Source: Bacillota bacterium (GTDB lineage Bacteria; Bacillota; Limnochordia; Darwinibacteriales; DTU012). From it: 64,000 nt of DNA. The position numbers and the translations under genes were made by a program. Below are positions 33,637 through 51,718 of this stretch, in pieces. The notes under the pieces were generated by a model that made no database searches, had not been told where the DNA came from, and saw only the letters and a list, made by a program, of their open reading frames with translations. Every line of letters starts with the position of its first letter. Position 1 is the stretch's first letter. The stretch covers positions 2,224 through 66,223 of the forward strand of contig DURM01000008.1 in the NCBI GenBank assembly GCA_012837335.1, in the 5' to 3' direction.

Positions 33637-33771
33637 GTTGATCCTCCTAAAAGCACGGTCAAACGATGTTTCGCTCTTGCTGATGGAAATTCCTGCCACA
33701 AAAATAATGCCCTATTACTATATGTTTTCTGCTCTCTCCGTGTCAAAGCAGTTGCAGAAAATGCTTCCACC

Positions 33772-34741: not shown

Positions 34742-34960
34742 TTACAGAAGGCTCAGTACTACTGCAATCACCATGAAGGCACATGCTAAGTACTTAGTGG
34801 CCCTTTCTAAAATAATCTCTGATTGCGAAGCTTTGTTAAAGAACATCTTGCCGCCGCCACCAATCGATCCCAGACCTTCACCTTTACTCTCCTGGAGTAC
34901 CACAGCGACAGTTAGTCCTATGCAGACTAGAAATTGAATCACCATTAAAAAGGTTTGCAT
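34742..34960 (-). CDS. secG: Preprotein translocase subunit SecG
   Basis: Two TM helices flank LQESKGEGLGSIGGGG, the SecG signature. GGGGGGTG lies upstream of ATG at 34960; the tracked ORF starts at 34984. Confidence 0.85.
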   Translation of the reverse strand: MQTFLMVIQFLVCIGLTVAVVLQESKGEGLGSIGGGGKMFFNKASQSEIILERATKYLACAFMVIAVVLSLL

Positions 34961-35000
34961 CTCGAGCAGACACCCCCCTGCCATAACAGTTACCTCTTAC

Positions 35001-35029
35001 AGTTTACCACAGAAACAGCCTGTCTGCAA
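35001..35029 (-). promoter_or_regulatory. Sigma-A promoter for secG
   Basis: Minus strand reads TTGCAG (35029..35024), a 17-nt spacer, then TGgTAAACT, an extended -10 (35006..35001). Confidence 0.6.
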
Positions 35030-35044: not shown

Positions 35045-35311
35045 TTATTCATCCCAGCGGGACTGCTGGGGATGGGGACAGGAACCGGTTCGGTACTTAG
35101 CTTTAACCTGCACAATACAGCCGCATAACATACATGTGGTTCCGTACTCAAGGTATGAGCAGTCCAGACACTTGCCTAAACGTCTGTTGTAGACTTCGTC
35201 CTCAACAGCTTGGCCGGAGCGCTCCACCTGGGCAACCATCTGCGCGATTGAATCAGGAGAGACCTCAACCGACTCACTGCAGCCTTTGCACAAATCCCGC
35301 TTCTCGTCCAT
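35045..35311 (-). CDS. Small Cys-rich protein (8 Cys in CxxC-type pairs), DUF6171-like
   Basis: 88 aa. The pattern is CKGC ...(34 aa)... CLDC ... CMLCGC ... SCPHP ... RW. I recall this as the pattern of the family labelled DUF6171, but that is unverified. The start lies 3 nt after the GH51 stop. Confidence 0.55.
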   Translation of the reverse strand: MDEKRDLCKGCSESVEVSPDSIAQMVAQVERSGQAVEDEVYNRRLGKCLDCSYLEYGTTCMLCGCIVQVKAKYRTGSCPHPQQSRWDE

Positions 35312-35313
35312 TG

Positions 35314-36789
35314 CTATTCCACCTTGAGGACTGCGACCGACATTGGCGGCAGTTTCACGCTCAGTTTGTTTTGATTCAGAACTGCCTCATCGAAAGCAGA
35401 TGGCGCAACTTTATCAGGCTCATCGAAGGTGTTGTGGTCATTCATGACATCTGCTGTCAGGATTGTTCCACTGACAAACACTGCATCCATCCCCCGCAGG
35501 TCGCAGTCAATCTCAGCAGCATTTTGCGGATCCAAATTGCAGAGGGAAATATGCAGTTGACCTTCGGCATTGCGGGACGCGGAAACAGTCACCTGTGGAA
35601 TCGATTCATTTTCAAACTGATACAGGTCGCTTTCACAGTAAACGTCCACAGCGTCCGCATCCTGGTGAACTTTATACATATCGAATACATGGTAGGTCGG
35701 GGTCTTAACTAGTTTATCGCCTTCGGTCAGCAGCACTGCCTGGAGTACGTTAACAGTCTGGGCAATGTTGGTCATCTGCACACGCTGGCAGTGTTTGTGG
35801 AAGATGTTAAAGTTAATTCCCGCTACCAGAGCATCTCTGATGGTATTCTGCTGATACAGGAAGCCTGGGTTGGTGCCCGGCTCTACATTATACCAAGTTC
35901 CCCATTCATCGATAATCAGCCCGACCCGCTTATGGGGATCATAGAAATCCATAATTGCACCGTGGCGGGTAATCAGGTCATCCATAACCATCGTTTTTTT
36001 CAGAGTCACAAACCACTCTTTGTGGTCAAAATCTGTTGCCGAACCTTTATCGCCCCATGTGCCAGGTACAGTATAATAGTGGAGACTTAAGCCATTCATC
36101 ATCCGTCCCGCTTCCCGCATCATAACTTCGGTCCAGCGGAAGTCATGGCCGTTGGCACCACAGGCGATTTTGTAGATATTATTGCCTCGATAGTTGCGGA
36201 CATAAGTCGCATAGCGCCGGTACAAGTCCGCATAGTACTCGGGGCGCATATTGCCGCCGCAGCCCCAGTTTTCATTACCAACCCCGAAATAAGGCAGTTT
36301 CCAAGGCTCGTCCCGGCCGTTTTCCCGCCGCAAGTTGGCCATCGGCGATTCGCCATCAAAGGTCATGTACTCCACCCACTGCTCCATTTCATGGACACTG
36401 CCGCTGCCTACATTACCGCAGATATATGGCTCGGCACCGATTAATTCACACAGCAGCATAAATTCATGGGTTCCAAAGTGGTTGTTTTCAACCACACCGC
36501 CCCAGTGGGTGTTGATCATCTCAGGGCGCTGATCTCTTGGACCGATGCCGTCTTTCCAGTGGTATTCATCGGCAAAACAGCCGCCAGGCCAGCGTAAAAC
36601 CGGTATCTGCAGCTGTCTTAATGCTTCAATCACATCATTGCGGATACCTTTGGTATTGGGGATGGGTGAATCCTCTCCCACCCAAATGCCTTCGTAAATA
36701 CAGCGACCCAGGTGTTCCGAAAAATGACCGTAGATGTTCCGATTGATTTTACCCCGCTTTATATCAGCATTAATAATAATTTTCGTCAT
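35314..36789 (-). CDS. abfA: Alpha-L-arabinofuranosidase, GH51, cytoplasmic
   Basis: 491 aa with no signal peptide. [23 protein letters not shown]...[20 protein letters not shown]...[11 protein letters not shown] matches the GH51 AbfA pattern. Confidence 0.9.
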
Positions 36790-36873
36790 CGCTAAACCTC
36801 CTTGTTTTTTTGCTGGAACAAGTTCCCTTCCTTCTATTAGACTAGTTGGCTTAAAATCCTGCTTAAACCAGAC

Positions 36874-37848
36874 TTATTCTACCAAACCAGTCCTTTCAAT
36901 ACTTTCCGTAAACCAGCGCTGGGCAATGAAATAAAGGATCAGAATTGGGAAAATCACTAAAAACGCTCCGGCCATCCGCACCGGCTCAGTCATTGTGCTC
37001 AAGCCATAAGGGTTCACATCGTAAATCTCATCAAGAGTCTGCTGCAAGCCCTGGAGTCTGCGCACCAGCGACCACATATTTTGATTCGAGACAAACATCG
37101 AAGGCAGGTAGTAATCGTTCCAGTGCCAGACAAAGGAAAACAAGCTGACTACCAGCACAGCCGGTCTTGCCAGCGGCAGCATAATTCTGGTAAAGATCGT
37201 TACTGAATTAGCCCCGTCTAAGCGAGCTGCTTCCTCTAACGACTGGGGCTGGCCCATGAAAAACTGCCGGTAGATTATGATAAATAAGCTCCCCTTCAAT
37301 CCCAATCCCAGCATTTCCGGCACAATCAGCGGATAATAAGTATTCAACCAGCCAAAATTCCGGTAAAGCAGGTATAACGGGATCACGATTGTCTGAGGCG
37401 GCACGATAAAGGTAAGGAACACCAGCAAAAACAGGATGTTTTTACCCGGAAAGTTGTAGCGGGCAAATCCGTATCCGGCAACTGCGCAGGATATAGTCTG
37501 GGCAACAGTGGCAATTGCTGCTATAAACACAGTCTGCCCCAGTCCCTGCCAGTACTCGAGTCCTTCAAATGCTTTTGCCAGGTTATCCCAATTCAGGGCT
37601 GTGGGAATCCAGCGAATGGTAGGATCTACCAGATCAAGCGTGCTCATCATCATTGTGGACAGCATGTAAAGAATTGGGTAAACATAAATAAACGCTACAT
37701 CAACAAGGAGGATGAACACAATAATCTTGTTGATCACACCGGTCTTCATGCCCCGGCCGAACAGGATTCCTCTCAGACTCAGCCACCGCGGCCTCAGCCC
37801 CTCCCGCAGCGCATCAGTTCTTTGTGCAAATGTAGGTCTGATACTCAC
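36874..37848 (-). CDS. Carbohydrate ABC transporter permease (MalG-like, CUT1)
   Basis: 6 TM helices and the EAA loop EEAARLDGANSVTIFTRIMLPLARP. GGGAGGGGAG lies before GTG at 37848. The tracked ORF start at 37902 would overlap the upstream gene by 41 nt. Confidence 0.85.
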   Translation of the reverse strand: MSIRPTFAQRTDALREGLRPRWLSLRGILFGRGMKTGVINKIIVFILLVDVAFIYVYPILYMLSTMMMSTLDLVDPTIRWIPTALNWDNLAKAFEGLEYWQGLGQTVFIAAIATVAQTISCAVAGYGFARYNFPGKNILFLLVFLTFIVPPQTIVIPLYLLYRNFGWLNTYYPLIVPEMLGLGLKGSLFIIIYRQFFMGQPQSLEEAARLDGANSVTIFTRIMLPLARPAVLVVSLFSFVWHWNDYYLPSMFVSNQNMWSLVRRLQGLQQTLDEIYDVNPYGLSTMTEPVRMAGAFLVIFPILILYFIAQRWFTESIERTGLVE

Positions 37849-37861
37849 CGCGCTCCCCTCC

Positions 37862-38725
37862 CTAGTATCTTTCCACTTTCCGCATTCCCAGAGTATAGAC
37901 AATTACTAACGCAACCAAGATCAGGGCGAAATAAATCCAACCCAATGCCGCGGCGTAGCCCATTCCTGTCCGCACGCTGAACATATGCCTGTTGATCGTG
38001 CCGAGCATTTGGTTAAATGGTGATACAGACAGCTCCACAATCGTATACACAGTAGTTAAGACTATAAACGGCCGCAGTGCTGGCAGAGTGATCTTCCAAA
38101 ATGATTCCCACCGCCCTGCTCCGTCAATAGCAGCCGCCTCGTAGACGCTGTCACTGATAGTCTTTAACGCTGCCAGAATCAGCAGAATCTGCACACCAGA
38201 GCTCCACAGCACCAGAGTAAAGCGGGACAGCACAGCGGTGACCGGTTCATTTAGTGACTCAGGCAGCGCGTTGATCAGCATGTTGAACACGTTAAACCGC
38301 GTCATAAAGCTGCCTCCGCCGGCTCCCAGATCAAAGAGCGTGGTAATTACCTGACTTGTTGAGAAGATTACCGGCAGGAAGAAAATCGCCCGGAAGATGC
38401 CTCTACCCCACACTTCCTCGTTAATTAACAGTCCGACCAAGAGTGAGAAAATCACGATAATCGGCACAGAAATCAGGGATTCCTGAACAAAAGCTGCCAG
38501 TTCCACGGGAAAAACGTTATCGCTCAGGAACGCGTAGATATAGTTATCCCAGCCGACAAAAGTGAAGTTGATGGCAGTGGCGGTTACCTGCACTTCCGTA
38601 AAACTCATATACAGGGAATAAGCCAGCGGAAAAGCCATAAACACGATAAAACCTACCAGCCACGGCAGGATGAAGGTAAATCCCTCCAGCGAACGACGAG
38701 CAGCTAAGGACAGCTTCAGTTTCAT
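37862..38725 (-). CDS. Carbohydrate ABC transporter permease (MalF-like, CUT1)
   Basis: 6 TM helices and the EAA loop YEAAAIDGAGRWESFWKITLPALRP. ATGA overlap with the upstream 729-aa gene. Confidence 0.85.
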   Translation of the reverse strand: MKLKLSLAARRSLEGFTFILPWLVGFIVFMAFPLAYSLYMSFTEVQVTATAINFTFVGWDNYIYAFLSDNVFPVELAAFVQESLISVPIIVIFSLLVGLLINEEVWGRGIFRAIFFLPVIFSTSQVITTLFDLGAGGGSFMTRFNVFNMLINALPESLNEPVTAVLSRFTLVLWSSGVQILLILAALKTISDSVYEAAAIDGAGRWESFWKITLPALRPFIVLTTVYTIVELSVSPFNQMLGTINRHMFSVRTGMGYAAALGWIYFALILVALVIVYTLGMRKVERY

Positions 38726-40911
38726 TGGATTTGTCCCTCCTTATCAAAGACGGCAAAGGAATTGCCCATCACTGTTGTGCCGCTGTAATCATAAGGGCGG
38801 GTGCCGTAATTAACCACAAAGCGGGTTCCATCTTCATACTCAGTCAGAAACACATCAGCCGCTAGCGGTCTGTGGTCGACGATAAACTGATCATGCACCT
38901 GCTGCAGCTTTAGATTAATCTTCTGGTACTGCTCCACGGTTCGATCCAGCCAATCAAGATAATAGGTACTGTACATGTCGCTGGACAGTGTGTAGCGGAG
39001 ATGCCATGACGGCTCAGCTGTCAGCACAAAGCTGGGCAGCGCGCCGTACTCAACCGCCCGCAGCAGATCTCTGGTAGGATTGATGCTGAGATTGAGATGG
39101 TCGGTATAATATGTTACCAGCCCGTGCACAGCAATTTGGTAAAAAGGTATCGACTGGTCGATAAAGGAATCCTGGGTAGTCTGCAGGGGAATATCCTGAA
39201 TGAAATCTATCGACCCGATTAAATACGCGTTACCGGTAGTAACGCCGATGGTGTCAACATACTCCCGGGTTAAATCGATCAGCTGTTTGTAAAGCAAGCG
39301 CGCATCGCGGCGTTGAATCTTCGCTTCGATGTTGGGATTGTGATCGCTGTTCAGAGCAGACCCAATGGAAAGGTGCACCAGACCGTCCACTCCATACTGG
39401 GCGATTTTGGGAATATCCCGCTCTGCATACTCCAAGCTGATCTTAGGCGAGATCAGATAGGTGGTGACGTCCGGCGCGCCAATCGCAAAGCCATAGGATG
39501 ACATCCGGATTAAGTCATTAAACGCAGTGCGGCTGGCCTGAGTAGACGGCTGAAATCCATTGTTTGAACCGCGCGCGATCGTATAATCATCGGCCAGCAG
39601 AATTCTAATGCCGCGTTCATGCAGCTGGTCAACCAGTGAGCGAAGTCCTTCTTCTCCGCCCAGTTCTTTCTCCGGTGGTAACCGCCTTGGCAGATTGCCG
39701 TGGATTCCCATCCGGTTCCAGCCTCTGAAATTGATGATTAAGTTATCAACACCACTGGCGAGCAGCTGGTCAACAACTTCAACTGCCTGCTCAAAGGTGG
39801 TAACAGGCTTGATGACCGGCCCGAAAATGTTGGTCTCATAATCGGCTCCTAACAGCTCAACCAAAAGCGGCGCCTGCCAGGTTTTTGAGTCAATGCGCTT
39901 GGCACCTTGCTCAGCGATTAAATACTCGCGGTAGGTCTGAGCCATTCCCACATAGTCCGCCTGGTCATCGGTCAAGAAGTAGAACCTAATCCGGCGATCG
40001 CCGGGAATTGGATTTTCGTCAAAAATGCGGATGCCGCCTCCCTGCCGAGATGTCCGCATGATAATGGATTGACTGTACCACAGTTCGGCAGTAATCCAGT
40101 TAAGATTAGTAATAACTCCTGCCGGAGTCGCAATTACCTTTGCGGACTCCTGACCTTCCTCAATAATGCCGAGAAATGCTTGGTCCCAAGTTTTCATCCC
40201 GAAAATGGGCATTACCACAGGCTCACGGTAGGGATCGTAAGTGGGCTCTGCCGAAGCCGGATCCAAACCGTAAATCCACTGGTTGTACCCAGTTTGGGAA
40301 AGAGACACCTGCTCCTTAAACCACACTAACCCACCGGATCCATCAGGAACAACCATATAACCAGACGGATCTGCTTCACTGGGTTGAGCTCCCAAAAACG
40401 GCAGCAGCCTCAAGGCCAGCAGCTGCAGGTCGCCATTGCCAATCTGGACCTGTTCCCAAGGCACATAGGCAGTCAGTGAGTTATCGGCGAGGGTGTATTC
40501 CACCGTAAAACCGATGCCCGTGTTTTCAAAGTAATAGCGCATGGCAAAACCATTATCGATCTCGGCATACTCAATCTGCACATCCTTTGAATAAGCGTTA
40601 GCTCCCCGCACATTGCGCCTTTTGTCGAAGTAATCTAGATAAATTGGCGACTGAAGATTGCCCTGCCACGCATCAGAAAGCCACATAAATCCATCGATTG
40701 TGCTCACATCGGGATTGGAGTACCAGACTCCCCCGGCACGATCTCGCACAATCAGCTGTCCGTCCTCAGGGCGGGCATACAGCTCAAGATATTCGTTTTG
40801 AGCAGTAAGCTGAAAATCTTCCGGTATTTCTACCGCTGCAACGCTGACACCGGCAGTTACAAATATCAGCAGGAATCCTGTCATCATGAGCATCCGTTTG
40901 CTAGAAAACAC
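38722..40911 (-). CDS. Large secreted protein of unknown function; possibly a TIM-barrel glycoside-hydrolase-like protein (DUF5696-like architecture)
   Basis: 729 aa with a signal peptide (LLIFVTAGVSVAAVE). The central region (VDNLIINFRGWNRMGIHGNLP...IRILLADDY...GVDGLVHLSIGS) alternates beta/alpha segments like a (beta/alpha)8 barrel. The family name is from memory and unverified. Confidence 0.5.
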   Translation of the reverse strand: MFSSKRMLMMTGFLLIFVTAGVSVAAVEIPEDFQLTAQNEYLELYARPEDGQLIVRDRAGGVWYSNPDVSTIDGFMWLSDAWQGNLQSPIYLDYFDKRRNVRGANAYSKDVQIEYAEIDNGFAMRYYFENTGIGFTVEYTLADNSLTAYVPWEQVQIGNGDLQLLALRLLPFLGAQPSEADPSGYMVVPDGSGGLVWFKEQVSLSQTGYNQWIYGLDPASAEPTYDPYREPVVMPIFGMKTWDQAFLGIIEEGQESAKVIATPAGVITNLNWITAELWYSQSIIMRTSRQGGGIRIFDENPIPGDRRIRFYFLTDDQADYVGMAQTYREYLIAEQGAKRIDSKTWQAPLLVELLGADYETNIFGPVIKPVTTFEQAVEVVDQLLASGVDNLIINFRGWNRMGIHGNLPRRLPPEKELGGEEGLRSLVDQLHERGIRILLADDYTIARGSNNGFQPSTQASRTAFNDLIRMSSYGFAIGAPDVTTYLISPKISLEYAERDIPKIAQYGVDGLVHLSIGSALNSDHNPNIEAKIQRRDARLLYKQLIDLTREYVDTIGVTTGNAYLIGSIDFIQDIPLQTTQDSFIDQSIPFYQIAVHGLVTYYTDHLNLSINPTRDLLRAVEYGALPSFVLTAEPSWHLRYTLSSDMYSTYYLDWLDRTVEQYQKINLKLQQVHDQFIVDHRPLAADVFLTEYEDGTRFVVNYGTRPYDYSGTTVMGNSFAVFDKEGQIQ

Positions 40912-43012
40912 GGTAGATCACCTCTTTGTAAAGACCTACAGCAAAGTCGCTGACGTTAAAGGTCATGCCAATCACTAAACCGCCGATTGCACCAATCACC
41001 ACCATCATCAGCACCGATAGGATGCAGTTGGGAATCGCTTCGAAGATCTCGTAGTTATGGATGGTGTAGACCATGACAAAGAACAGAATTGCGCTCCAAA
41101 TCACTGCCACATTCTGGAAGAAATGGTAAACAGGCGCCTCGTAGTTTGTCATCACATTGGAAATTAGGGTTAAAGGAAGCATGATGACGATATAAGGAAC
41201 GAGACAATAAGCACTGGCGATAAACACATCTTTGAATCTGCCTTCACCCTCTTTGAGCGCGCTGATTAGGTAGTGGCCGATTACCCAGATCACCCACGGC
41301 AGAATGAACGTCATGGCTTCAATGCCGAGATTAATGCGATTGCGGTCAATGCTCATAAAGATTAGGTTGGTATAGTAAAGGGAAAAGAGCTTGGTGGCAA
41401 ATGCCAGCAGCACAATGACGCAGGCAGATAACCACGATCCTTTATTGGACCAGCGCACATCATAAAAGCCTTCCGAGGGATGGAAAATAACCGTCTTGGC
41501 GTGCATTAAATCGCCTAATAGACGGTTAACCCGATACCAATCCCGCTTTTGTCTGGGGCGGTGGCGCAGGTACACGCGATTAACAATCTGATAAACAACC
41601 CAAACTGCTGCTAAAATAATCAGGACCTTGTCAAAGTGGTTCAGAAGCCAAGCTCGCCTTGCCCACCAAAATGCATCGGAGTAACCATCAGCGTACTGGG
41701 CGAGATAAAAATGGTCCATGGCTGTCTCAAACTCCTCATTTTGATAGGCTGCCATGCCCAATCCGCGGTGCGCAAAGTCAAAGTTGGAATTGCGCCGCAG
41801 TACTTCTTCCCAGTATTTAGCACTGTCATCGTATCTGCCGTCTTCAAACAAATAAACCGCTTCATGAACTAACTGGGCGAATTCCGTCGGTTTAAAGACA
41901 TGCAGGGTATTGCTGCGGGAATCGGATACGATGATCAGACCATCGGAGCGGATCGCCAGCCCCGCTGCCTGGTTGATCAAACCCATTCTCTCAATCGCAG
42001 CAATACTGCGGCCGCCAAAAACAAACAGCTTATCTCCGTTTGGGGTATATTGGAAAATCTGCCCGGTATTAGCATCCACTGCCGTAATAATGCCTTTCGG
42101 ATCTACAGCTACAGCATTAAACATGGAAACGCCGGTGCGGAAATAGGGTGCGCCATAATCTCTTTCCGGCAGGGTGTTGATGCCGCCGAGGTTAAAGCGC
42201 TTGACCTGAGCATGACTAGTCGAGATCGTAGCAGTGTAGATCTGCCCGCGCTGATCAATCGTTACAAAGCTGGGAGAACCGGGCAGGCGCCGTTTTTCCC
42301 GTCCTAACTGTTCTTCAGTAAAGAAGATCTGCTTTAAGACCCACATTAAGTCAAAACCGGCCTGATTGCCGCCGATAAAACCAAGAAACTCACCAGATTC
42401 TGACAGCTGCACTAAGCCCCGATAGCCGCCCTCGGTAACGATAAACAGTGAGCCGCGGTGATCCACTACCAGCGATACCGGGGCAAACCGGTAATCCACG
42501 CCAAAGATCTGGGAATCTGGTCTGCCGTACGCCTGCATGAACTCACCGGTAGGGCTGAATACAGCCACCCGGCTGTTGCCGGTATCCGCCACAAAGATGC
42601 GGCCATCCTCATGCACAAATACACCCTGCGGCCGCGACAGGCGTCCCTGGCCGGAACTATCCCCGATCGAGCGCAAATAATTAAACTCATCATCATACTC
42701 GACGATGCGGTTATTGCCTGCATCCGCGATGTAGAGATGGTTCTTGCTGTCTACTGCTAAGCCCTGCGGCTGACTGAAGGGCACTATTGCATAGCCTGAT
42801 ATTGACCAGGGATCCTCCAAGCGGATATCAAACCCATCCAGCATGAGAATCGGTTCATAGGGGGCCGGAGACACAACCGGCTGGCCCCAGGCATCAAAAC
42901 TGAAACTGGGGTACGGAACGGCAGCTGAGATCGGCACTTTCAGCCCAACAATCACCAGACCGATAATCACTAAACTAACTGATAACCTGTAAAATCGCTG
43001 CACCGAATCCAC
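40901..43012 (-). CDS. Membrane protein with an extracytoplasmic NHL-repeat beta-propeller, a TPR-like linker and a C-terminal Yip1-type 5-TM domain
   Basis: 703 aa. NHL-like blades include LYIADAGNNRIVEYD, IFVADTGNSRVAVFS, IITAVDANTGQIFQY and LIIVSDSRSNTLHVF. The C-terminal 230 aa form 5 TM helices like Yip1/DUF1282. An alternative GTG start at 43003 has a better Shine-Dalgarno (GAGGTGG). Confidence 0.65.
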   Translation of the reverse strand: MDSVQRFYRLSVSLVIIGLVIVGLKVPISAAVPYPSFSFDAWGQPVVSPAPYEPILMLDGFDIRLEDPWSISGYAIVPFSQPQGLAVDSKNHLYIADAGNNRIVEYDDEFNYLRSIGDSSGQGRLSRPQGVFVHEDGRIFVADTGNSRVAVFSPTGEFMQAYGRPDSQIFGVDYRFAPVSLVVDHRGSLFIVTEGGYRGLVQLSESGEFLGFIGGNQAGFDLMWVLKQIFFTEEQLGREKRRLPGSPSFVTIDQRGQIYTATISTSHAQVKRFNLGGINTLPERDYGAPYFRTGVSMFNAVAVDPKGIITAVDANTGQIFQYTPNGDKLFVFGGRSIAAIERMGLINQAAGLAIRSDGLIIVSDSRSNTLHVFKPTEFAQLVHEAVYLFEDGRYDDSAKYWEEVLRRNSNFDFAHRGLGMAAYQNEEFETAMDHFYLAQYADGYSDAFWWARRAWLLNHFDKVLIILAAVWVVYQIVNRVYLRHRPRQKRDWYRVNRLLGDLMHAKTVIFHPSEGFYDVRWSNKGSWLSACVIVLLAFATKLFSLYYTNLIFMSIDRNRINLGIEAMTFILPWVIWVIGHYLISALKEGEGRFKDVFIASAYCLVPYIVIMLPLTLISNVMTNYEAPVYHFFQNVAVIWSAILFFVMVYTIHNYEIFEAIPNCILSVLMMVVIGAIGGLVIGMTFNVSDFAVGLYKEVIYRVF

Positions 43013-43013
43013 C

Positions 43014-43871
43014 TCACTTCAGGCCCGAATGTGCCATAGTTTGAATTACTCGGTTCTGCATGACCAGGAAGAAGATCAAGTTTGGCAGAAACATCAGCAA
43101 ACCTGCGGCAGCCGCTGCTCCCTGTCCGGCCACATTGTTAGCTAGACCGGAAGTGAGGGTGCCGAGGAAAAACGGCAGCGTCCGCATGGCTTCGTTTTCA
43201 ATATAATAAATCGATGGCTCCATGGTATTCCACGCTGATTGAAAAGTCAGCAGCGCGATTGTGCTCACTGCCGGACGGCAGATCGGATAAATAATCCGAA
43301 ACAGGATATGCCACTCTGACGCACCGTCGATTCTGGCGGCAGCCAGCAGATCTTCGGGTACCTGATCCACAAACTGCTTAAACAAAAACACACTCACGGG
43401 CGCTGCTACCAGCGGCAGGATATGGGCCAAGTATGTATCAATAATTCCCAGACGCTGCACAATGATGTAACGGGGAATGATCACTGCCTGAGGAGCAAAC
43501 ATCAAGGCCATAATGGTCATATTGAGAATCGCGTTTTTGCCGAGAAAATTATGTTTAGATAGGGCAAATGCTACCATCGTGCTGAAAGCAACTACTACAA
43601 TCACCGTTGCCGCAGCCGAAAATACACTGTTAAACAGATACCTAACTACCGGTACCACCGCAGCATCTACCGAAGTCAGCAGCTGAGAAAAGTTGTCCAG
43701 CGTAGGATTCATCACATAAAAGCGGGGTGGATAAAGAAATAATTCGCTTAAAGGCTTAAACGCCTGCATGAAGATGAACACAATCGGCAGCAGCATAAAA
43801 ACAGCTAGAAAACTTAAGAACAGCGTCAGGATAATTTGGGTTAAGTCCATCTTAAAGAGCCGAAAGCGCAT
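43014..43871 (-). CDS. Carbohydrate ABC transporter permease (MalG-like, CUT1)
   Basis: 6 TM helices and the EAA loop LAAARIDGASEWHILFRIIYPICRP. AAGGAGGGGG lies upstream within the end of the preceding gene. Confidence 0.85.
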   Translation of the reverse strand: MRFRLFKMDLTQIILTLFLSFLAVFMLLPIVFIFMQAFKPLSELFLYPPRFYVMNPTLDNFSQLLTSVDAAVVPVVRYLFNSVFSAAATVIVVVAFSTMVAFALSKHNFLGKNAILNMTIMALMFAPQAVIIPRYIIVQRLGIIDTYLAHILPLVAAPVSVFLFKQFVDQVPEDLLAAARIDGASEWHILFRIIYPICRPAVSTIALLTFQSAWNTMEPSIYYIENEAMRTLPFFLGTLTSGLANNVAGQGAAAAAGLLMFLPNLIFFLVMQNRVIQTMAHSGLK

Positions 43872-43874
43872 CGA

Positions 43875-44849
43875 TTATTCCCCCTCCTTTGGCCCAAAAA
43901 GTGCCCACGCAAGCTTGCTGGATATATAAACAATAATCAGCAGAACTACGGAAATTGCCGCGGCATAACCCATTTCGAAGCGCTGGAAAGCAAAGTCATC
44001 GATATGGTTGAGAATCAGCTGACCCGCGTAGTTGGGAGTTGGGTTTTGACCAGACAGAGTCACCCCGATTGCCCCCGCTTGGAGAGTGTTGACAATTGAC
44101 ATCACTGCTCCAAACAGCATCTGCGGTTTAACCGATGGAATTGTGATGTAAAAGATCTCCTGAGCCCGATTTTTAATTCCGTCGATCCGAGCTGCTTCAT
44201 ACAGCTGGGGATCAACATTTAGAATACCGGCCATCATTGCCAAGAAACCTACTCCCATACTGCTCCACAGTGTGACGATAATCATAACAGGCATCAGCCA
44301 CTGCTCACTGTGGAGCCAGTTAATCGGTTCGGTAATAACTCCCAGCCCCAGCAAAAAGCTGTTCAGATAGCCAACCCGGTCTCCGCTGAACAAAACCAGC
44401 CAAATGGCTGACATGGCCACCGCGGCTGCCATCGAAGGGGTGTACAGAGCTAAGCTATAGACGGTCCGCATCCGCTGGGGCAGCTGGGCAATCAGCCAGG
44501 CTAACAGAAACGACAGCAGATATCCGCCCGGACCCACAATTATGGCAAACGTAAAGGTATTGGGCAGGACATGGGTCATAAATACATCATCTTCAGTAAA
44601 AAGATAGATATAGTTGAGCAGCCCTACAAACCGAGGTGTTTCAATCATATTGTAAAAGGTAAAGGAAAGCCCGATCGCTCCTAAAACCGGCAGGAGAATG
44701 AAAATCGTAAAGCAGATTACATATGGGGCAACCATGACATAGGATACCCGGTCCTGCCAGAGGCGCCGGCCGAAGCTCCTAAGCCTTGCTCCGAGCCCCG
44801 GTGAAGTAGGCCGCAGCGCCCGCTCATATGCCGGAGTTTGAGATTTCAT
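43875..44849 (-). CDS. Carbohydrate ABC transporter permease (MalF-like, CUT1)
   Basis: 6 TM helices and the EAA loop [26 protein letters not shown]. The ATG directly abuts the TAG of the 967-aa SBP gene. Confidence 0.85.
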
Positions 44850-47753
44850 CTATTGACCCTCCTTTTCCCAATCCCAAGGCTCATTAACCACTGGAATACT
44901 AAACTCTACTACTCGTTCGCCCTCTTCGTTAATTAAACCAAACTCAAGCTGTTTGCGGAGCAGTTCGCGGCGGACATTCCGGTCTGCTTCATGCAGAGCC
45001 AGCCGCGTATTTTGGGCTCCTGACGCAGTGCCGATTACCACGCGGTTCCAAGCAAAGGACAGCTCCCGCTCGAGAATGTAGCCGCCTGGTACTTGGGGAA
45101 CGTCTTTGAGCCAGCGCCACTGTTCTTTAATCGTCTCTAATTCTTCTAAGGTCCAGGGAATCTGAGTAATAGCTGCTAAGTTGGCCGTATTCCAGCGATA
45201 AGCCACACTGAACATGGCTTCCACTTCGTTGCCGAAGCGAGCCTGTACTTCTGCTGAAGTCCACCACTTAATCCATTCCCAAGCTTCTTCTTTATGATCA
45301 CTTAATTCAAACATAATAATCGACTGCATCGCCCCGGGTGCCCAGCGGACAGTTTCGCCATCATCTTTCTTAACTCCAGGCATGGGCGCAATGCCCCACA
45401 GCTCCCGCAACTCAGGAGCAGCAGCTTTCAGCTGGACAAAAGTGTTGTAATCCGAGACACCAAGCGGTATATCTCCCGAGCGGAAGTTCTGGAAAAACCA
45501 TGCTACGAAGTTATCTAAGGCATAAACCGTATATAGATCGGTTAAACGCCTGAAGCCGGTGAGGGCTTCGGGAGTTAACAGACTTGTGCGCAGTCCATCA
45601 GGTGAGTAAAGCTCAGCATCCGCTTGATAGAAAAATGGCGCCATAACATTTAAGGCTTTGATACCGGTACCGGCTGAAACCGGAATGTAGAAATTCATGC
45701 CCATCTGCTGAAGCAGCGGCAAGAGTTCAACAACGTCATCCCAGGTATCCGGAAGCTCGATGCCCAATTCCTCAACAATGTCTTTGCGATAAAACAAGAC
45801 CCAGAAATTTTGGGTTTCGGGCATGGCGTAAACGCCATCTAAATAGTGATAGGACAAGAATGCGCCGGGATGGAAGCGAGCAGCCACCTCGTCAAAATCC
45901 GGAAACTGCGTTAAATCAACCAGCGCACCCCGGCTCGCTAAGTTAAACGGTGTAGTATACCAGACACTCGCCGCCAAATCCGGGGGAGTTCCATTGGAAT
46001 TAGCCAAAATCAATTGGTCTTCTCGAGGCATTAAGCTGAACGCCACTTTGATGCCGGTTTGGGGTGTAAACCACTGATCGGTAAGCTGCTGCATCACCGA
46101 GACGAAGTCTCGTCCCCGGCCGACCCAAATCTCTAAGGTATCTTCATCGCCTAAGCCAACAGCATTATAATTTTTAAAGAATGACTGGACAAAGTTTTTA
46201 ATCGTGACCCAGGTCCGCGCTGCAAAGCTCGATTTGCCCGGCGGCAGCGGATGCCCCGGTGATGTAATGAAGATTTTATCGATCTGCAGCGGTTCATCCT
46301 GAAGCGATAGAATCACGTTGCCAATCACTTCCGAAATCGAACCCGAATCAACTGATAGCTGAGTATAGCGAAGCGGCAGCATTTCCGGCTCTTCTGCTAG
46401 AGCTTCCAGCTGTTCCGCGCTGACAATTAGGTTGGCTGCAGCATCAGGAGCTCTGCCGGTAATGGCTTTTAATCTCTGATACTCTGCTCTAAGCCGCGCT
46501 GCGCTGTCTAAAATCCGATCAATTGCATCCGGTATCTGCTTATCCAAATCCCAATCCCGATACCGATCCGGGTTGCGGCCGGTGGCCATGGCGATACTGA
46601 TGGATAAGTCCCGCAGATCGGAGATTACATCTAAAATAGTATTGATTGTCGGCTGAACAACCTGATTAATCGCAGTTAAGCGCAGTTTGTGCGTTCCTTT
46701 GGTGAGGTAAAAGAGCATCGGCTCACCATCAGCAGCTTCAAAGAAAGTTGACTGCCAGTTTTGATCATAATGAAATGAATACAGCAGCAGTTCTGGTGCG
46801 GGGACTTGATCATCGATTTCGATTTTGCGGTAGGTAGGCATGTTATGCTTAAAGTTCTGGGCAAATCGAAGCCCGATCTGGTAATAGCCATCTTCTGGCA
46901 CAGTAAATTCCCACTCTGCCCACTCACCGGCAGCGTGCCAGTATAAAGTATTATAAATCGTGACACCATCTTCACGGGGAGTAACCAAGGGATCACCACT
47001 GGCGTTTACCATTACCGATGAGTGAGATTTGGAAAGCGGATTCTCGGCCTCGATTTCCAGCTTCCATTCTTTAACGGCCTTCAAATCAAGCTGGGGTTTT
47101 TGATACTCGGTCACCACCTGCGGAGGAACTAAAGCAATGCTTTTTAGAATCACGTGGGAGCGGAGTCCATGTATTCGAATTGTATGAGTGCCTTGAGAAA
47201 AATACCACTTAAAAGGTTCCACGTACTTGCCGTTAATATCGCTAAGTCTCATGGAACGCATGGTAAAAATCTGCTCTTGGAAGGCCCGTCTTTCATTATT
47301 AAAATCATCCCGCTCAAAGGGATAAACGCTGTTGCGCCACTGGCGATCCAGGGCAGTGCGGCGCGCTTCTCGAAATGGATATTCACCATTTATCTCGATG
47401 CCAATCTCAATGTTAAACATCTGGCTGCCGAGAGGCATATACTCCACCATAATATTATATAAGCCGGGTTGGTCTACAAATATTTGGTACTCAACCCAGC
47501 CGTCATCAGCCTGCCAATACAGCAAATCATCTTCTGTCCTGAATTTAGCCGGATCAGAAACTTCATTATAATAAACAGCAGGTATAATTATTCCAGTCTG
47601 GTTTAAAGGAATCTGCTGGATACCTTGGTCAATCAAATTTACAAGATAATCTCCATAGGTCGGCTCACTGAAAATACTGCTTGCAGCAGCAGAGCCGGCT
47701 AAGATTATTAGTATTAATATCAGTGCAGAGACGATTTTCCAAGACTTCTGCAT
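44850..47753 (-). CDS. Giant extracellular solute-binding protein: a roughly 480-aa N-terminal extension with two CBM-like modules, fused to a family-1 SBP domain
   Basis: 967 aa with a signal peptide that lacks Cys. An internal duplication is visible: LYWQADDGWVEYQIFVDQPGLYNIMVEY...FSQGTHTIRIHGL versus LYWHAAGEWAEWEFTVPEDGYYQIGLRF...LTKGTHKLRLTAI. The C-terminal roughly 450 aa look like SBP_bac_1. Confidence 0.7.
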   Translation of the reverse strand: MQKSWKIVSALILILIILAGSAAASSIFSEPTYGDYLVNLIDQGIQQIPLNQTGIIIPAVYYNEVSDPAKFRTEDDLLYWQADDGWVEYQIFVDQPGLYNIMVEYMPLGSQMFNIEIGIEINGEYPFREARRTALDRQWRNSVYPFERDDFNNERRAFQEQIFTMRSMRLSDINGKYVEPFKWYFSQGTHTIRIHGLRSHVILKSIALVPPQVVTEYQKPQLDLKAVKEWKLEIEAENPLSKSHSSVMVNASGDPLVTPREDGVTIYNTLYWHAAGEWAEWEFTVPEDGYYQIGLRFAQNFKHNMPTYRKIEIDDQVPAPELLLYSFHYDQNWQSTFFEAADGEPMLFYLTKGTHKLRLTAINQVVQPTINTILDVISDLRDLSISIAMATGRNPDRYRDWDLDKQIPDAIDRILDSAARLRAEYQRLKAITGRAPDAAANLIVSAEQLEALAEEPEMLPLRYTQLSVDSGSISEVIGNVILSLQDEPLQIDKIFITSPGHPLPPGKSSFAARTWVTIKNFVQSFFKNYNAVGLGDEDTLEIWVGRGRDFVSVMQQLTDQWFTPQTGIKVAFSLMPREDQLILANSNGTPPDLAASVWYTTPFNLASRGALVDLTQFPDFDEVAARFHPGAFLSYHYLDGVYAMPETQNFWVLFYRKDIVEELGIELPDTWDDVVELLPLLQQMGMNFYIPVSAGTGIKALNVMAPFFYQADAELYSPDGLRTSLLTPEALTGFRRLTDLYTVYALDNFVAWFFQNFRSGDIPLGVSDYNTFVQLKAAAPELRELWGIAPMPGVKKDDGETVRWAPGAMQSIIMFELSDHKEEAWEWIKWWTSAEVQARFGNEVEAMFSVAYRWNTANLAAITQIPWTLEELETIKEQWRWLKDVPQVPGGYILERELSFAWNRVVIGTASGAQNTRLALHEADRNVRRELLRKQLEFGLINEEGERVVEFSIPVVNEPWDWEKEGQ

Positions 47754-47784
47754 GTGACAACCCCCTTACCAGAACTGCGGTAGC

Positions 47785-47818
47785 ACGTTCGCTCCCTCCA
47801 TAAGAAGAGAGCGAACGT
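47785..47818 (-). promoter_or_regulatory. Intercistronic stem-loop after the first SBP gene (mRNA stabiliser or partial attenuator)
   Basis: ACGTTCGCTC ... GAGCGAACGT forms a 10-bp perfect stem with a 14-nt loop. No U-tract follows it on the minus strand. Confidence 0.55.
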
Positions 47819-47831
47819 TTTAACTTAAAGC

Positions 47832-49190
47832 TTATTTACCAAGTGCTGCATCAAGCTTAGCGTTGTTAGCTGCCCACGCTTCTTCAAGATATTTGTTTGC
47901 CTGCTCTACAGCTGCTGGCATAACATCCTCAAACGCAGCAGCGCCAAGTCTCAGCTGATCGCGTGCAGGTGTGATAAAGTTGTCCCAGACATAGCCCAAT
48001 TCCGGAACATAGCGGTTCGGATCAACCACGCCGCCATCCAGAGTTGCATGGACATTGCGCATGCCTGCCGGAACGTTTTCATTTCCGAAGTAAAGATCCC
48101 AAGCTTCAGGCGCATCGATGGTCGGCATACTGTAAGGAACAGGAACTTCTGCCTGCATTCTCGCTGCCCAGCCGTCTTGATCGTAGCTCATCCAGCGCAG
48201 GAAGGTGAATGCTTCTTCCGGATGCTTGGTGGTTGGAGAAATACCCATATGGTCTACGATCAGAGGAGTTGCTTGACGGGCAGGACCATGTGGATAAGGA
48301 ATGATATCCCACTCAGATTCATAGTTCTCTGTCCACCAGGAGAAGGACCAGCTCCAACCTACGTGGAACGCAGCCTTATTCTGCATCCAAGGCGAAACGT
48401 TGCCGTATGCGTCAACAAACGCCGGGTGATCCCATGGAGTCAGAATTGAACCATCAGCTAATCCAATGCTTACTGCTGCATTTTCTCTTTCCCAGCGGAT
48501 TGCAGTCTTGAGGGCTTCAATTACATTTGGGTCATCCATCATTAAGCGGGTACCATCAACACGCAGAGCATCCCAGGTAGTGCCGTCAAGATATGCCGGC
48601 GGCATAAATGCCCAGAACATCCACGGATCTTCCATGCCGTAGTAGTTTTGAGCCGGACGGTTCATTCTCTGGCAGAATGCCCACAGATCATCCCAAGTCC
48701 AGGACGGATCCGGCAGGCGCATGCCAAAGTAATTCAGAACATCGAGATTCGCCACGAGGAAGCTTGCCTGCAGTTGGAACGGCAGACCGAAATAGCGGTC
48801 TTTAAACTGCATTGGTTCAAGAGAGTTACCCCAGAACAGATCCGGATCAAAAGTTGGATCATTTTCCAAAAAGTCGGTAATATCGGCTACCCATTGATTA
48901 TAAACATACATGTTGTTGTCCATAATCCACAGGACGTCCGGAAGTGTACCGGCAGCAGCTAAAGCGGTAATCCGATCATTAAATTGTCCCGCTTCAACAT
49001 ACTCATAAGTAACGATAATGTTTGGATACATCTCCATAAACGCATCCAGGCGAGGCTCCTGCGGCTGGTCGCCGGGCCACGCCCAACCCATATACCACAG
49101 CTCAACAACATCGTCCTGAGCAACGACAAAACCGGACAAGCTGAACAGTAAAGATAATGCAAGCACTAAGCACACTACAGCTTTTCTCAT
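47832..49190 (-). CDS. Carbohydrate ABC transporter solute-binding protein (family 1)
   Basis: 452 aa with a cleavable-type signal peptide (SLSGFVVAQDD) and no lipobox Cys. The overall pattern is SBP_bac_1-like. Confidence 0.85.
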   Translation of the reverse strand: MRKAVVCLVLALSLLFSLSGFVVAQDDVVELWYMGWAWPGDQPQEPRLDAFMEMYPNIIVTYEYVEAGQFNDRITALAAAGTLPDVLWIMDNNMYVYNQWVADITDFLENDPTFDPDLFWGNSLEPMQFKDRYFGLPFQLQASFLVANLDVLNYFGMRLPDPSWTWDDLWAFCQRMNRPAQNYYGMEDPWMFWAFMPPAYLDGTTWDALRVDGTRLMMDDPNVIEALKTAIRWERENAAVSIGLADGSILTPWDHPAFVDAYGNVSPWMQNKAAFHVGWSWSFSWWTENYESEWDIIPYPHGPARQATPLIVDHMGISPTTKHPEEAFTFLRWMSYDQDGWAARMQAEVPVPYSMPTIDAPEAWDLYFGNENVPAGMRNVHATLDGGVVDPNRYVPELGYVWDNFITPARDQLRLGAAAFEDVMPAAVEQANKYLEEAWAANNAKLDAALGK

Positions 49191-49265
49191 AACAATCTCC
49201 TTTCTAAAATTTCGCTAGGTCGTTAAAAGCTGGACATTTGGGACGCTCCAAGACCACCCCCAATT

Positions 49266-50255
49266 TTAGGTTGAAGCTCTTTCAACCAGTTTAGGTGATA
49301 AAATCATTTGCTCAGGCTTGGCAGTTGGCTCCCGCAGCTTTCTGAGAAGAATTTCTGCGCTTAAAATCCCCATCTCCTGGTTTTGGATATCAATGGAGGT
49401 CAGCGGCGGATCCGTGATTTCAGTAATCAGCAGATTATCCACGCCCATTACCGCTATATCATCGGGTACCTTAAGACCCCTTTCTTTGATTCCGTGAAGT
49501 ATTTCAAGCGCCATATAATCACAGAAACAGAAAACTGCGCTGGGTTCCAACCCCTGCTCCAGAGCTTCAAACAACTTATACTTTGCATCAGTGTGGAAAG
49601 GTACTGATTTAATCCACTTCGGGTCGAGTTTAATCCCCAGTTCCTTCATTCTGGCCGCAAAACCTCGCGCCCGTAACTGCGCGCTGTAGTTAAGCGATGA
49701 GTTGATGAACAGAATCCGCTCATGTCCTTTAGCAGTTAAATGCTCAGCTGCCATTGCCCCTATTTGATAGTCATCACAGACCACATAGCTGGTATCGATT
49801 CCGGGAATTGTTCTGCCCACCAGAACGAAAGGAAGATTATTCTTTTGCAGCCTTTCAACAACTTCCGGTTTGCTCTGGACGGGAGCTAAGATCAAGCCAT
49901 CCACCCGCTGTTCCAGAAGTACAGTTATGGCTCCCGATTCCTGCTGGATATCTTCATAGGAGCTGCACAGCAGAATATTATAGCCCTGTTCCTTTAAGAC
50001 TTTTTCAATTCCGGAAACAACGTTGGCATAAAATGGGTTCTCGATTGTAGTAATGATTACTCCGATTACTCTGGTTTCTCCCGACCAGAGCCCCTTGGCC
50101 AAAGAACTGGGCACATAGCCGATCTGCTCTGCAACCTGCAGCACTCTCGCCCGAGTTTCCGGATTAACCTCCCCCCGGTTATTAATTGCTCTTGAAGCTG
50201 TCGCTAGCGAAACTCCGCTCAGCCTGGCCACGTCTTTTAGTGTAGCTGGTGCCAT
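49266..50255 (-). CDS. LacI family transcriptional regulator
   Basis: 329 aa. N-terminal HTH ATLKDVARLSGVSLATASRAINN followed by a periplasmic-binding-protein-like sugar-binding core. Confidence 0.92.
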   Translation of the reverse strand: MAPATLKDVARLSGVSLATASRAINNRGEVNPETRARVLQVAEQIGYVPSSLAKGLWSGETRVIGVIITTIENPFYANVVSGIEKVLKEQGYNILLCSSYEDIQQESGAITVLLEQRVDGLILAPVQSKPEVVERLQKNNLPFVLVGRTIPGIDTSYVVCDDYQIGAMAAEHLTAKGHERILFINSSLNYSAQLRARGFAARMKELGIKLDPKWIKSVPFHTDAKYKLFEALEQGLEPSAVFCFCDYMALEILHGIKERGLKVPDDIAVMGVDNLLITEITDPPLTSIDIQNQEMGILSAEILLRKLREPTAKPEQMILSPKLVERAST

Positions 50256-50278
50256 ATCTCTATCTCCTTTAAAATAAT

Positions 50279-50292
50279 CGGAAACGTTTACA
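50279..50292. promoter_or_regulatory. LacI-type operator 1 (minus-strand reading TGTAAACGTTTCCG)
   Basis: A palindromic AAACGTTT core, 24-37 nt upstream of the LacI start codon. Confidence 0.55.
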
Positions 50293-50312
50293 TTGTGAAG
50301 AAATTATTAACA

Positions 50313-50326
50313 CGCAAACGTTTACG
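50313..50326. promoter_or_regulatory. LacI-type operator 2 (minus-strand reading CGTAAACGTTTGCG)
   Basis: A 14-bp palindrome with one mismatch. Its centre is 34 bp from the centre of operator 1. Confidence 0.55.
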
Positions 50327-50384
50327 GTTAATTAATCATTCTACTTTCTTAACAATCTTCCTTCATCATTTCCAAAAAAAGTAA

Positions 50385-50422
50385 ACTAAAAAAGACTACC
50401 GCTGCAGGAGCGATAGTCTTTT
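50385..50422 (-). terminator. Rho-independent terminator of the glycolytic operon (after eno)
   Basis: Minus strand reads AAAAGACUA-u-CGCU-ccugc-AGCG-g-UAGUCUUUU, followed by UUAGUUUACUUUUUUU. Confidence 0.75.
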
Positions 50423-50434
50423 CATAATTGAAGT

Positions 50435-51718
<1,284 letters not shown>

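Follow-up and report, generated by a model that had tools for sequence, protein, structure and literature searches.

The stretch of DNA analyzed here, referred to below as the window, comprises 64,000 nt of contig DURM01000008.1 (assembly GCA_012837335.1) from a Bacillota bacterium of the DTU012 lineage. Between eno and secG, at positions 35045 to 50434, the open reading frames (ORFs) and their translations reveal a minus-strand run of eleven genes in the same direction, each where a first-pass annotation of the sequence had placed it (Table 1). The block encodes a LacI-type repressor, two substrate-binding proteins (SBPs), four ABC permeases, an NHL/TPR/Yip1 membrane protein, a DUF5696 protein, a glycoside hydrolase of family GH51, and a Cys-rich DUF6171 protein. 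The first-pass annotation had treated all eleven genes as one module. We found that the cluster exists but that the conserved unit within it consists of only seven genes, from the long SBP to the fourth permease, which we call the cassette; lacI, the ordinary SBP gene, the GH51 gene, and the DUF6171 gene are variable add-ons outside it.

Table 1. Features of the block between eno and secG and of its borders
Feature	Position	Strand	Evidence and remarks
eno	50435-51718	-	TIGR01060, E 2e-219
Intrinsic terminator of eno	50389-50423	-	15-bp stem then T run, from intergenic fold; upstream block boundary
LacI-type operator-like palindrome, 14 bp, CGTAAACGTTTGCG	50313-50326	-	Overlaps promoter-like site 50331-50303 upstream of lacI
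LacI-type operator-like palindrome, 14 bp, TGTAAACGTTTCCG	50279-50292	-	Overlaps promoter-like site 50299-50271 upstream of lacI
lacI repressor, 329 aa	49266-50255	-	Pfam LacI HTH and Peripla_BP_1/3; variable add-on
Ordinary SBP, CUT1, 452 aa	47832-49190	-	SBP_bac_1 and SBP_bac_8; N-terminal signal/anchor
Hairpin without T run	47785-47818	-	Perfect 15-bp stem, -30 kcal/mol; between ordinary SBP and long SBP
Long SBP, 967 aa, cassette gene 1	44850-47753	-	Pfam SBP domain, aa 562-840
Permease 1, MalF-like, 324 aa, cassette gene 2	43875-44849	-	BPD_transp_1; EAA loop YEAARIDG
Permease 2, MalG-like, 285 aa, cassette gene 3	43014-43871	-	BPD_transp_1; EAA loop AAARIDG
NHL/TPR/Yip1 membrane protein, 703 aa, cassette gene 4	40901-43012	-	Pfam NHL 3.6e-25, TPR_16, Yip1 7e-14
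DUF5696 protein, 729 aa, cassette gene 5	38722-40911	-	PF18952, E 5.5e-176
Permease 3, divergent, 287 aa, cassette gene 6	37862-38725	-	BPD_transp_1 26.3 bits (cut-off 26.4); EAA loop YEAAAIDG
Permease 4, ~324 aa, cassette gene 7	36874-37848 (ORF to TTG at 37902)	-	BPD_transp_1 1.9e-16
GH51 alpha-L-arabinofuranosidase, cytoplasmic, 491 aa	35314-36789	-	Alpha-L-AF_C 9e-54 and ASD1_dom; variable add-on
Cys-rich DUF6171 protein, 88 aa	35045-35311	-	PF19668, E 1e-7; abuts GH51
secG	34742-34984	-	TIGR00810; downstream block boundary
Terminator 3' of secG	34702-34727	-	Terminator scan

The genes of the block are closely packed. Six junctions had been described as overlaps or gaps of 3 nt or less, and the count matched exactly: the long SBP directly abuts permease 1 (gap 0 nt), and the gap is 3 nt between permeases 1 and 2, 1 nt between permease 2 and the NHL/TPR/Yip1 gene, and 2 nt between the GH51 and DUF6171 genes, while an 11-nt overlap joins the NHL/TPR/Yip1 gene to that for DUF5696 and a 4-nt overlap joins the latter to permease 3. 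The junction of permeases 3 and 4 depends on the start codon of the second gene, with a 41-nt overlap if translation begins at the TTG at 37902 and a 13-nt gap if it begins at the GTG at 37848. Because a ribosome-binding site (GGGAGGGG) lies 5' of the GTG and the resulting 324-aa product has the length of its orthologs, the GTG is most likely the start.

A seven-gene cassette recurs across phyla

In a scan of species representatives (one genome per species), at least 548 stretches were found to encode a relative of DUF5696. The best 80 of these were fetched, and they span Paenibacillaceae, Bacillaceae, Lachnospiraceae, Oscillospiraceae/Ruminococcaceae, Limnochordia, Halanaerobiaceae, and Anaerolineae. 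For 86 loci fetched via DUF5696, the window proteins were mapped onto the ORFs and gene orders were counted as strings. The cassette order (long SBP, permease, permease, NHL/TPR/Yip1 as a fused gene or two adjacent genes, DUF5696, permease, permease) was present exactly in 73 of the 86, and three more contain all of its parts. Six loci are cut by contig ends. The remaining four (L012, L066, L077, and L083) have a reduced form, in which the long SBP and first permease pair are missing while NHL-Yip1 and DUF5696 are kept together with one permease pair and an SBP of the ordinary type. The four permeases fall into separate orthologous groups, each with a fixed slot. The reduced form suggests that, functionally, the downstream half is the minimal unit of the cassette. 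Its NHL-TPR-Yip1 module is accompanied by a longer DUF5696 protein (about 800-970 aa, stop to stop), and two of the four examples are second copies: L066 and L083 come from the metagenome-assembled genomes that also contain L007 and L008.

The arrangement persists over large sequence distances. Homologs of DUF5696 at 66%, 45%, 36%, 31%, and 27% identity have an identical neighborhood, with a long SBP of ~970-1000 aa. Eight further look-ups, made from the DUF5696, long-SBP, and NHL-Yip1 sides, reached the same cassette, and three distant DUF5696 proteins (26-27% identity), one very common long SBP, and three NHL-Yip1 proteins each led to it. Across the 94 loci examined, the DUF5696 and NHL/Yip1 genes are adjacent and in the same order everywhere except in L174, where an IS110 element lies between them. 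A DUF5696 gene without an NHL/Yip1 gene was never seen among these 94 loci, nor was one without ABC permeases wherever the contig reached far enough; down to 23-27% identity the two genes sit between or beside ABC permease pairs where the contig allows. The short overlap of the NHL/Yip1 and DUF5696 genes recurs in distant taxa, and Paenibacillus, Bacillus, and further loci likewise show tight or overlapping junctions. When 1.84 billion representative proteins were searched with a profile, 4,091 DUF5696 clusters at 50% identity were obtained with E <= 1e-30. We conclude that the arrangement is far beyond chance, since the same gene order recurs across phyla.

These comparisons bear on two earlier claims. 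That the two proteins of unknown function are integral to the locus, and not passengers, is strongly supported by their adjacency to each other and to permeases across the 94 loci, and where contigs extended far enough neither was found apart from ABC components in relatives. The stronger claim, that they are stoichiometric parts of an uptake apparatus, involves a physical association that we can only infer.

Two individual loci depart from the common layout. In L173 (13929-16523), permeases 3 and 4 are fused into a protein of 864 aa. In L174 (11293-12524), the IS110-family transposase gene separates NHL-Yip1 from DUF5696 and a permease pair has been relocated to a place upstream of the long SBP; every part is retained.

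The DUF5696 protein has a predicted GH129-like fold

Two large proteins of unknown function had been noted between the permease pairs. Their position stands; the 729-aa protein, however, can now be assigned to a family, as it matches Pfam DUF5696 (PF18952) over its full length (587 bits against a cut-off of 25.6 bits, model positions 3-612 of 612). An AlphaFold2 model of high confidence (predicted local distance difference test score (pLDDT) 88, predicted template modeling score 0.91) shows the three-domain fold of GH129 enzymes, with an N-terminal beta-sandwich, a (beta/alpha)8 domain, and a C-terminal beta-sandwich. The top Foldseek matches of this model were 5opq/8rzk and 5wzn (E 2e-35 to 5e-31, TM-score 0.64-0.74), the matches to the Zobellia structures 5OPQ/8RZK (E 2e-35, TM-score 0.66/0.72) and to 5WZN both covering the whole length, and the next after these GH129-type structures were GH101, GH31, and GH36. 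The sequence profile of DUF5696 also reaches GH129 (E 1e-11), at an identity of only 14-16%. Thus, although the GH51 enzyme assigned by the first-pass annotation is clear, it is not necessarily the sole enzyme of the block, as had been stated.

DUF5696 shares its overall three-domain fold with NagBb (5WZN), an alpha-N-acetylgalactosaminidase of family GH129, and with the GH129-like 3,6-anhydro-D-galactosidase ZgDagB (5OPQ/8RZK), but differs from both in being membrane-tethered, in being always encoded inside an ABC transporter cassette, and in lacking conservation of the catalytic Asp. For the last reason we rejected its classification as a bona fide GH129 member. A different set of polar and aromatic residues is conserved among the homologs, namely D190 (98%), Y214, D217, W398, D523 (89%), R534, Y563, N607 (100%), and E621 (100% acidic), and this set therefore points to a likely sugar-binding site. 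ZgDagB Asp202 aligns to Gln211 of the window protein. With this fold but no conserved catalytic Asp, DUF5696 may be either a divergent glycosidase or a non-catalytic partner. In the clade of L090 and L091, the conserved D523 is replaced by Asn.

The extracytoplasmic proteins carry membrane-tethering signals

Hydropathy profiles predict a single N-terminal anchor or signal in each of the ordinary SBP, the long SBP, and the DUF5696 protein. All three special cassette proteins (long SBP, NHL-Yip1, and DUF5696) begin with an anchor, signal, or lipoprotein sequence, and a signal, lipoprotein, or transmembrane N terminus was found in all DUF5696 homologs.

The long SBP was modeled by AlphaFold2 (pLDDT 84) as an N-terminal transmembrane helix, two beta-sandwiches (residues ~55-210 and 230-362), a helical bundle (364-485), and the SBP domain. 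The first sandwich is a homolog of the second (E 1e-6). The profile matches the family 35 carbohydrate-binding module (CBM) of 5X7G, and we regard the sandwiches as two CBM6/35-like modules. Foldseek of the full model returned SBP and maltose-binding protein matches only and was uninformative for the N terminus; because these matches dominated, the CBM assignment draws on the weaker evidence of sequence. The closest solved relative of the SBP domain is Listeria innocua Lin1841 (5YSB; E 7.5e-29), a protein that binds beta-1,2-gluco-oligosaccharides (sophoro-oligosaccharides). Bacillaceae cassettes adjoin genes for GH94 SOGP, GH144, and GH3, which we take to be the same enzyme families as in the Listeria beta-1,2-glucan system. 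Lin1841, however, is a plain SBP of ~400 aa that serves a single permease pair, without CBM-like modules and without DUF5696 or NHL-Yip1 partners.

The NHL/TPR/Yip1 protein has seven hydrophobic segments, at residues 4-22, at 455-473 (after the TPR), and five between 527 and 681, in the Yip1 domain. The Yip1 assignment (PF04893, aa 507-673) scores 52 bits against a cut-off of 28.6 bits, and the expected membrane character is borne out by the five hydrophobic segments in the region. This topology predicts that the NHL propeller and TPR are extracytoplasmic. For the NHL region, the nearest matches are the NHL domains of TRIM71 and the sensor propeller of PknD. In relatives the protein is encoded by one gene or split into two.

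The only bacterial Yip1 precedent that we found is YknW, which belongs to the Yip1 family and modulates assembly of the ABC transporter YknXYZ (PMC4887032). It is curious that YknW belongs to an exporter of the type found beside one of the cassettes: in L035 (~14000-18620), genes for a MacB/FtsX-type ABC exporter and an HlyD-like membrane-fusion protein lie directly 3' of the cassette, and L015, L018, and L020 may be arranged likewise, as they have extra ABC-ATPase matches at an equal relative position.

Permeases and SBPs belong to the CUT1 class

Both SBPs of the block are of the SBP_bac_1/SBP_bac_8 class (E 7e-22 and 2e-23), and all four permeases are BPD_transp_1 subunits in whose translations the EAA-x-x-DG motif can be read. 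The ordinary SBP is a frequent eighth gene of variable position; in at least 53 of the 86 loci, a lower bound set by search sensitivity, it either immediately precedes the long SBP or follows permease 4. Its product is probably the binding protein for one of the two permease pairs. No dedicated MalK/MsmX-type ATPase is encoded between eno and secG, and the window as a whole has one ABC ATPase-like ORF, a short one far from the block (63047-63781, 244 aa). In 22 of the 86 loci an MsmX-like ATPase gene lies just upstream of the long SBP. Sharing of an ABC ATPase is common in Firmicutes.

Enzymes and regulators vary around a constant core

The GH51 enzyme has intact active-site motifs, with GNEN in GVGNENWG and DEWG in IIDEWGTW, which we take to hold the acid/base glutamate and the nucleophile, respectively. 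It matches the NCBIfam ArfA model at 2.7e-76 with a score of 257, below the equivalog cut-off of 625, and has neither a hydrophobic N terminus nor a signal peptide. GH51, GH43, or araABD genes are near the cassette in only 15 of the 86 loci, and we rejected an arabinan-specific cassette on this ground. Carbohydrate-active enzymes beside other cassettes include GH94 SOGP with GH144 and GH3/GH35; GH16 with GH3; GH88 with a rhamnogalacturonan I (RG-I) lyase and GH95; GH38; GH30; GH20; GH8/GH10/GH115/GH43 with an esterase; and GH51/GH43/araBDA. Their targets are xylan, beta-1,2-, beta-1,3-, and beta-1,6-glucans, RG-I, arabinan, and mannosides. Neighboring regulators vary as well, among LacI, AraC, and two-component systems. 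Because enzymes and regulators differ in this way from locus to locus, we conclude that the cassette is a generic platform. In the genome of the window, GH51 is likely to set the substrate class, and since this add-on enzyme is cytoplasmic, the cargo most likely consists of oligosaccharides decorated with alpha-L-arabinofuranose.

The DUF6171 gene is a lineage-specific passenger: in L001, L002, L007, and L008, relatives at 66-70% identity, no such gene separates GH51 from secG, and it was found in none of the 86 loci. The variant represented by L090 and L091 is very common, its 982-aa long SBP occurring in 262 index blocks and 141 contigs, with other matches to it coming from human-gut assemblies. 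This cassette is joined to GH8, a GDSL esterase, GH10, GH115, GH43, and an AraC regulator, and looks like a xylan locus.

The block is probably an insertion between eno and secG

For comparison we took 68 metagenomic contigs with enough sequence downstream of an enolase gene whose product is 66-77% identical. None of the 68 contains cassette parts. The secG gene lies within 400 nt of eno in 21 of them (16 of the 33 with pgm upstream) and farther away in four. Because cassette-free contigs often have secG right after eno, these data support the first-pass view of the block as an accessory module inserted here, between an eno and a secG that otherwise lie close together. The same block occupies the same site in the closest relatives (L001, L002, L007, and L008); in relatives at 45% identity the cassette lies elsewhere, before rplM-rpsI, and in other taxa its neighborhoods are unrelated. 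The base composition of the block shows no sharp change, with a GC fraction of 0.47-0.53 inside against 0.44-0.50 in the flanks, and so does not single it out as foreign or recently acquired DNA.

The gene order in the window is pgm, eno, block, secG, tmRNA (34334-34688), and smpB (33830-34294). The ORFs upstream of pgm presumably represent cggR-gap-pgk-tpi, as their sizes and order are those expected. An ARAGORN call of an 84-nt tRNA-Asp at 53432-53515 (plus strand) lies inside, and antisense to, a 250-aa ORF between pgm and the next upstream gene; we dismissed it as probably a false positive, as no Rfam tRNA reached the gathering threshold. Next to smpB, at 31852-33699 on the minus strand, is a gene for a 615-aa amidase with Cu_amine_oxidN1, two AMIN, and Amidase_3 domains. 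It occupies the spot where the Bacillus gene order would have rnr, and the same gene is present in L001 and L008. AMIN domains are typical of diderm bacteria. This raises the question of whether the lineage has an outer membrane, in which case the "secreted" cassette proteins would be periplasmic.

Candidate regulatory signals flank lacI and the ordinary SBP gene

The predicted repressor has both an N-terminal helix-turn-helix (HTH) domain and a periplasmic-binding-protein-like effector domain, although its best NCBIfam matches fall under the equivalog cut-offs. Among the 86 mapped loci, lacI is next to the cassette in some only. The two palindromes upstream of lacI (Table 1) are putative operators; over the two strands of the window their motif occurs eight times in all, where 1.1 occurrences would be expected. 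Further copies include CGTAAACGTTTCCG and TGGAAGCGTTTACA, LacI/cre-like palindromes at 2463-2476 and 10026-10039. One lies just downstream of a SpoIID-domain ORF (2563-4113, minus strand), which itself follows a gene for an FGGY sugar kinase (4088-5614), and the other lies inside an ORF at 8594-10537. These copies may be catabolite-responsive elements or operators of other LacI-family regulators.

The eno terminator proposed by the first-pass annotation is real. That annotation also gave secG a promoter of its own at 35001-35029; the site (TTGCAG-17-TAAACT with an upstream TG, 8 of 12 matches) is plausible but unsupported, being below the scan threshold. The scan found no terminator between the DUF6171 gene and secG, the next good one lying after secG. 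A feature that had gone unmentioned is the hairpin between the two SBP genes, which could act as an mRNA stabilizer, an attenuator, or a partial terminator that raises SBP expression relative to the downstream genes. An Rfam scan detected no riboswitch or other Rfam family within the cluster.

Discussion

The cassette belongs to a known kind of system, the ABC glycan importer, and what is new in it are two obligatory uncharacterized accessory components. CUT1 importers that share an MsmX/MsmK ATPase include AraNPQ-MsmX of B. subtilis and AbnEFJ of Geobacillus. The cassette resembles these in its SBP_bac_1-type SBPs, in its MalF/MalG-like pairs with EAA loops, and in having no ATPase in the operon, and the window locus resembles them further in its linked intracellular GH51/GH43-type arabinofuranosidase and LacI-type repressor. 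It differs in combining two permease pairs in one fixed unit, in its ~970-aa SBP with a transmembrane anchor, two CBM-like modules, and a helical bundle, and in the obligatory NHL/TPR/Yip1 and DUF5696 proteins between the permease pairs.

The locus can also be set beside polysaccharide utilization loci (PULs). Sheridan et al. are said to have defined the Gram-positive PUL (gpPUL) in 2016 as one or more polysaccharide-degrading enzymes encoded at the same place as a transport system and a transcriptional regulator. The window locus has all of these, with GH51 (and possibly DUF5696), two ABC systems, and LacI, and is therefore of the gpPUL kind, although that definition does not recognize the cassette as a unit. 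Like gpPULs and the Sus-like PULs of Bacteroidota, it joins a regulator, a transporter, and carbohydrate-active enzymes, and its enzymes vary around an unchanging core for capture and import, as they do around SusC/SusD. Unlike in Sus-like PULs, the core consists of twin ABC translocators, a CBM-bearing SBP, DUF5696, and NHL-Yip1; none of the eleven block proteins contains a domain of SusC (the TonB-dependent transporter) or SusD. A full-text literature search, whose coverage was incomplete, so that an earlier mention under another name is possible, yielded neither a published description of the cassette nor a characterized homologous cluster, and PMC8990778 and PMC5320581 do not mention it.

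We favor, with moderate confidence, the interpretation that the block is a LacI-controlled glycan-utilization locus whose ancient seven-gene cassette works as one unit, the extra proteins being accessory subunits of twin importers. We do so because of the fixed order and tight junctions across phyla, the tethering of three of the proteins, and the constancy of the core against variable enzymes. The machine would then combine two MalFG-type ABC translocators with three extracytoplasmic proteins tethered to the membrane. The CBM-like modules of the long SBP would hold glycan at the membrane surface, from where the SBP domain would hand oligosaccharide to a permease pair, while the ordinary SBP would feed the second pair. 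DUF5696 would either trim the captured glycan or serve as a non-catalytic subunit for binding and hand-over at the outer face of the membrane; we consider trimming and mere holding of substrate roughly equally probable. For the NHL/TPR/Yip1 protein we propose, by analogy, that it organizes assembly as YknW does for YknXYZ. Bacillus YknWXYZ likewise pairs a Yip1-domain membrane protein, needed for assembly, with an ABC transporter (PMC4887032), but it is a MacB-type exporter with a membrane-fusion protein, whereas the cassette encodes an SBP-dependent type I importer whose Yip1 domain is, unlike YknW, fused or adjacent to a large extracytoplasmic NHL propeller and TPR. ATP hydrolysis would be supplied by a shared MsmX-type ATPase encoded elsewhere, and cytoplasmic GH51, under LacI control, would debranch the imported arabinofuranose-decorated oligosaccharides.

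Several observations weigh against this interpretation or parts of it. The catalytic Asp common to the GH129-type enzymes (NagBb Asp435, equivalent to ZgDagB Asp486; PMC5698469) aligns to Leu514/Ser515 in the window protein, in an alignment made by sequence only that could be shifted, D523 lying 8-9 residues downstream, and only 30 of 87 homologs have Asp or Glu in this column. Because this column is unconserved, enzymatic activity of DUF5696, and with it the trimming step, is doubtful, although catalysis with relocated residues is possible. Contact between the cassette proteins is deduced from their genes: fusions of NHL to Yip1 and of permease 3 to permease 4 were the only ones seen among the loci, and neither DUF5696 nor NHL-Yip1 was found fused to a permease. 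The CBM assignment in the long SBP comes from matches of its homologs to CBM_35 and CBM_6 that remained below threshold, and the substrate call derives from one add-on gene, GH51. Finally, given the strong hairpin after the ordinary SBP gene and possible read-through into secG, the transcription units are putative.

The same evidence can be read in other ways. DUF5696 might be an active, tethered glycoside hydrolase of a new GH129-related family and the NHL propeller another extracellular enzyme or binding protein, the genes being co-regulated in an ordinary PUL whose products form no complex. The GH129/GH101/GH31/GH36-type fold of the whole protein, modeled with high confidence, its location outside the cytoplasm, and the conservation of residues like those of a sugar site (D190, Y214, W398, D523, R534, Y563, N607, and E621) all agree with this, and we regard it as unlikely rather than remote. 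The canonical nucleophile column is unconserved, and the short overlap of the Yip1 and DUF5696 genes is kept across distant taxa. Moreover, the neighboring enzymes attack unrelated glycans, yet DUF5696 and NHL-Yip1 remain constant in one slot, which would be unusual for a substrate-specific enzyme. In another proposal, the NHL-Yip1/DUF5696 pair is a sensing or gating device for extracellular polymer that controls transport or expression without handling substrate: a pseudo-enzyme fold without the catalytic Asp could serve as a receptor, and the propeller is most like NHL domains that bind ligands, among them the one with which the kinase PknD senses outside the cell. Neither protein, however, has an output domain (kinase, HTH, or GGDEF), and the regulators near the cassette (LacI, AraC, and two-component) vary and are not fixed to it, so that we hold a sensory role to be improbable.

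Least credible, and in our judgment very improbable, is that two independent ABC importers and two unrelated genes have merely been kept together by selfish co-transfer or operon inertia. The cassette does behave as a mobile accessory block, found at different genomic sites in different taxa, and in its reduced form the long SBP and first permease pair are missing; but between Bacillota and Chloroflexota, at 23-30% identity, the cassette retains its order and content while the flanking genes have all turned over, and inertia would not preserve a seven-gene order over the divergence represented by 4,091 DUF5696 clusters. L174, moreover, has retained all parts after an insertion sequence and a rearrangement.

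Beyond the interpretation of the cassette as one working unit, we tentatively entertain a bolder and rather doubtful extension, namely that the import machine is a functional counterpart of SusCD in monoderms and some Chloroflexota. Its translocators would be joined by a Yip1-anchored propeller/TPR scaffold, and the GH129-fold protein, largely non-catalytic, would hold or thread the substrate and, with the tethered CBM-bearing SBP, capture and import large oligosaccharides, specificity being set by exchange of the neighboring enzymes and of the second SBP.

The usual picture of a Gram-positive ABC sugar importer comprises an SBP, two permeases, and an ATPase, to which the cassette adds two obligatory partners. 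Its carriers include abundant fiber-degrading Lachnospiraceae and Oscillospiraceae as well as industrial Paenibacillus and Bacillus, and its seven-gene order provides a genomic marker for annotating Gram-positive PULs. For the large DUF5696 family, the arrangement offers a concrete hypothesis, with the possibility that a glycosidase fold has been recruited as a non-catalytic subunit. If the two partners are transporter subunits or surface processing factors, they would be a missing piece in the way Bacillota manage, without an outer membrane, to capture polysaccharide fragments.

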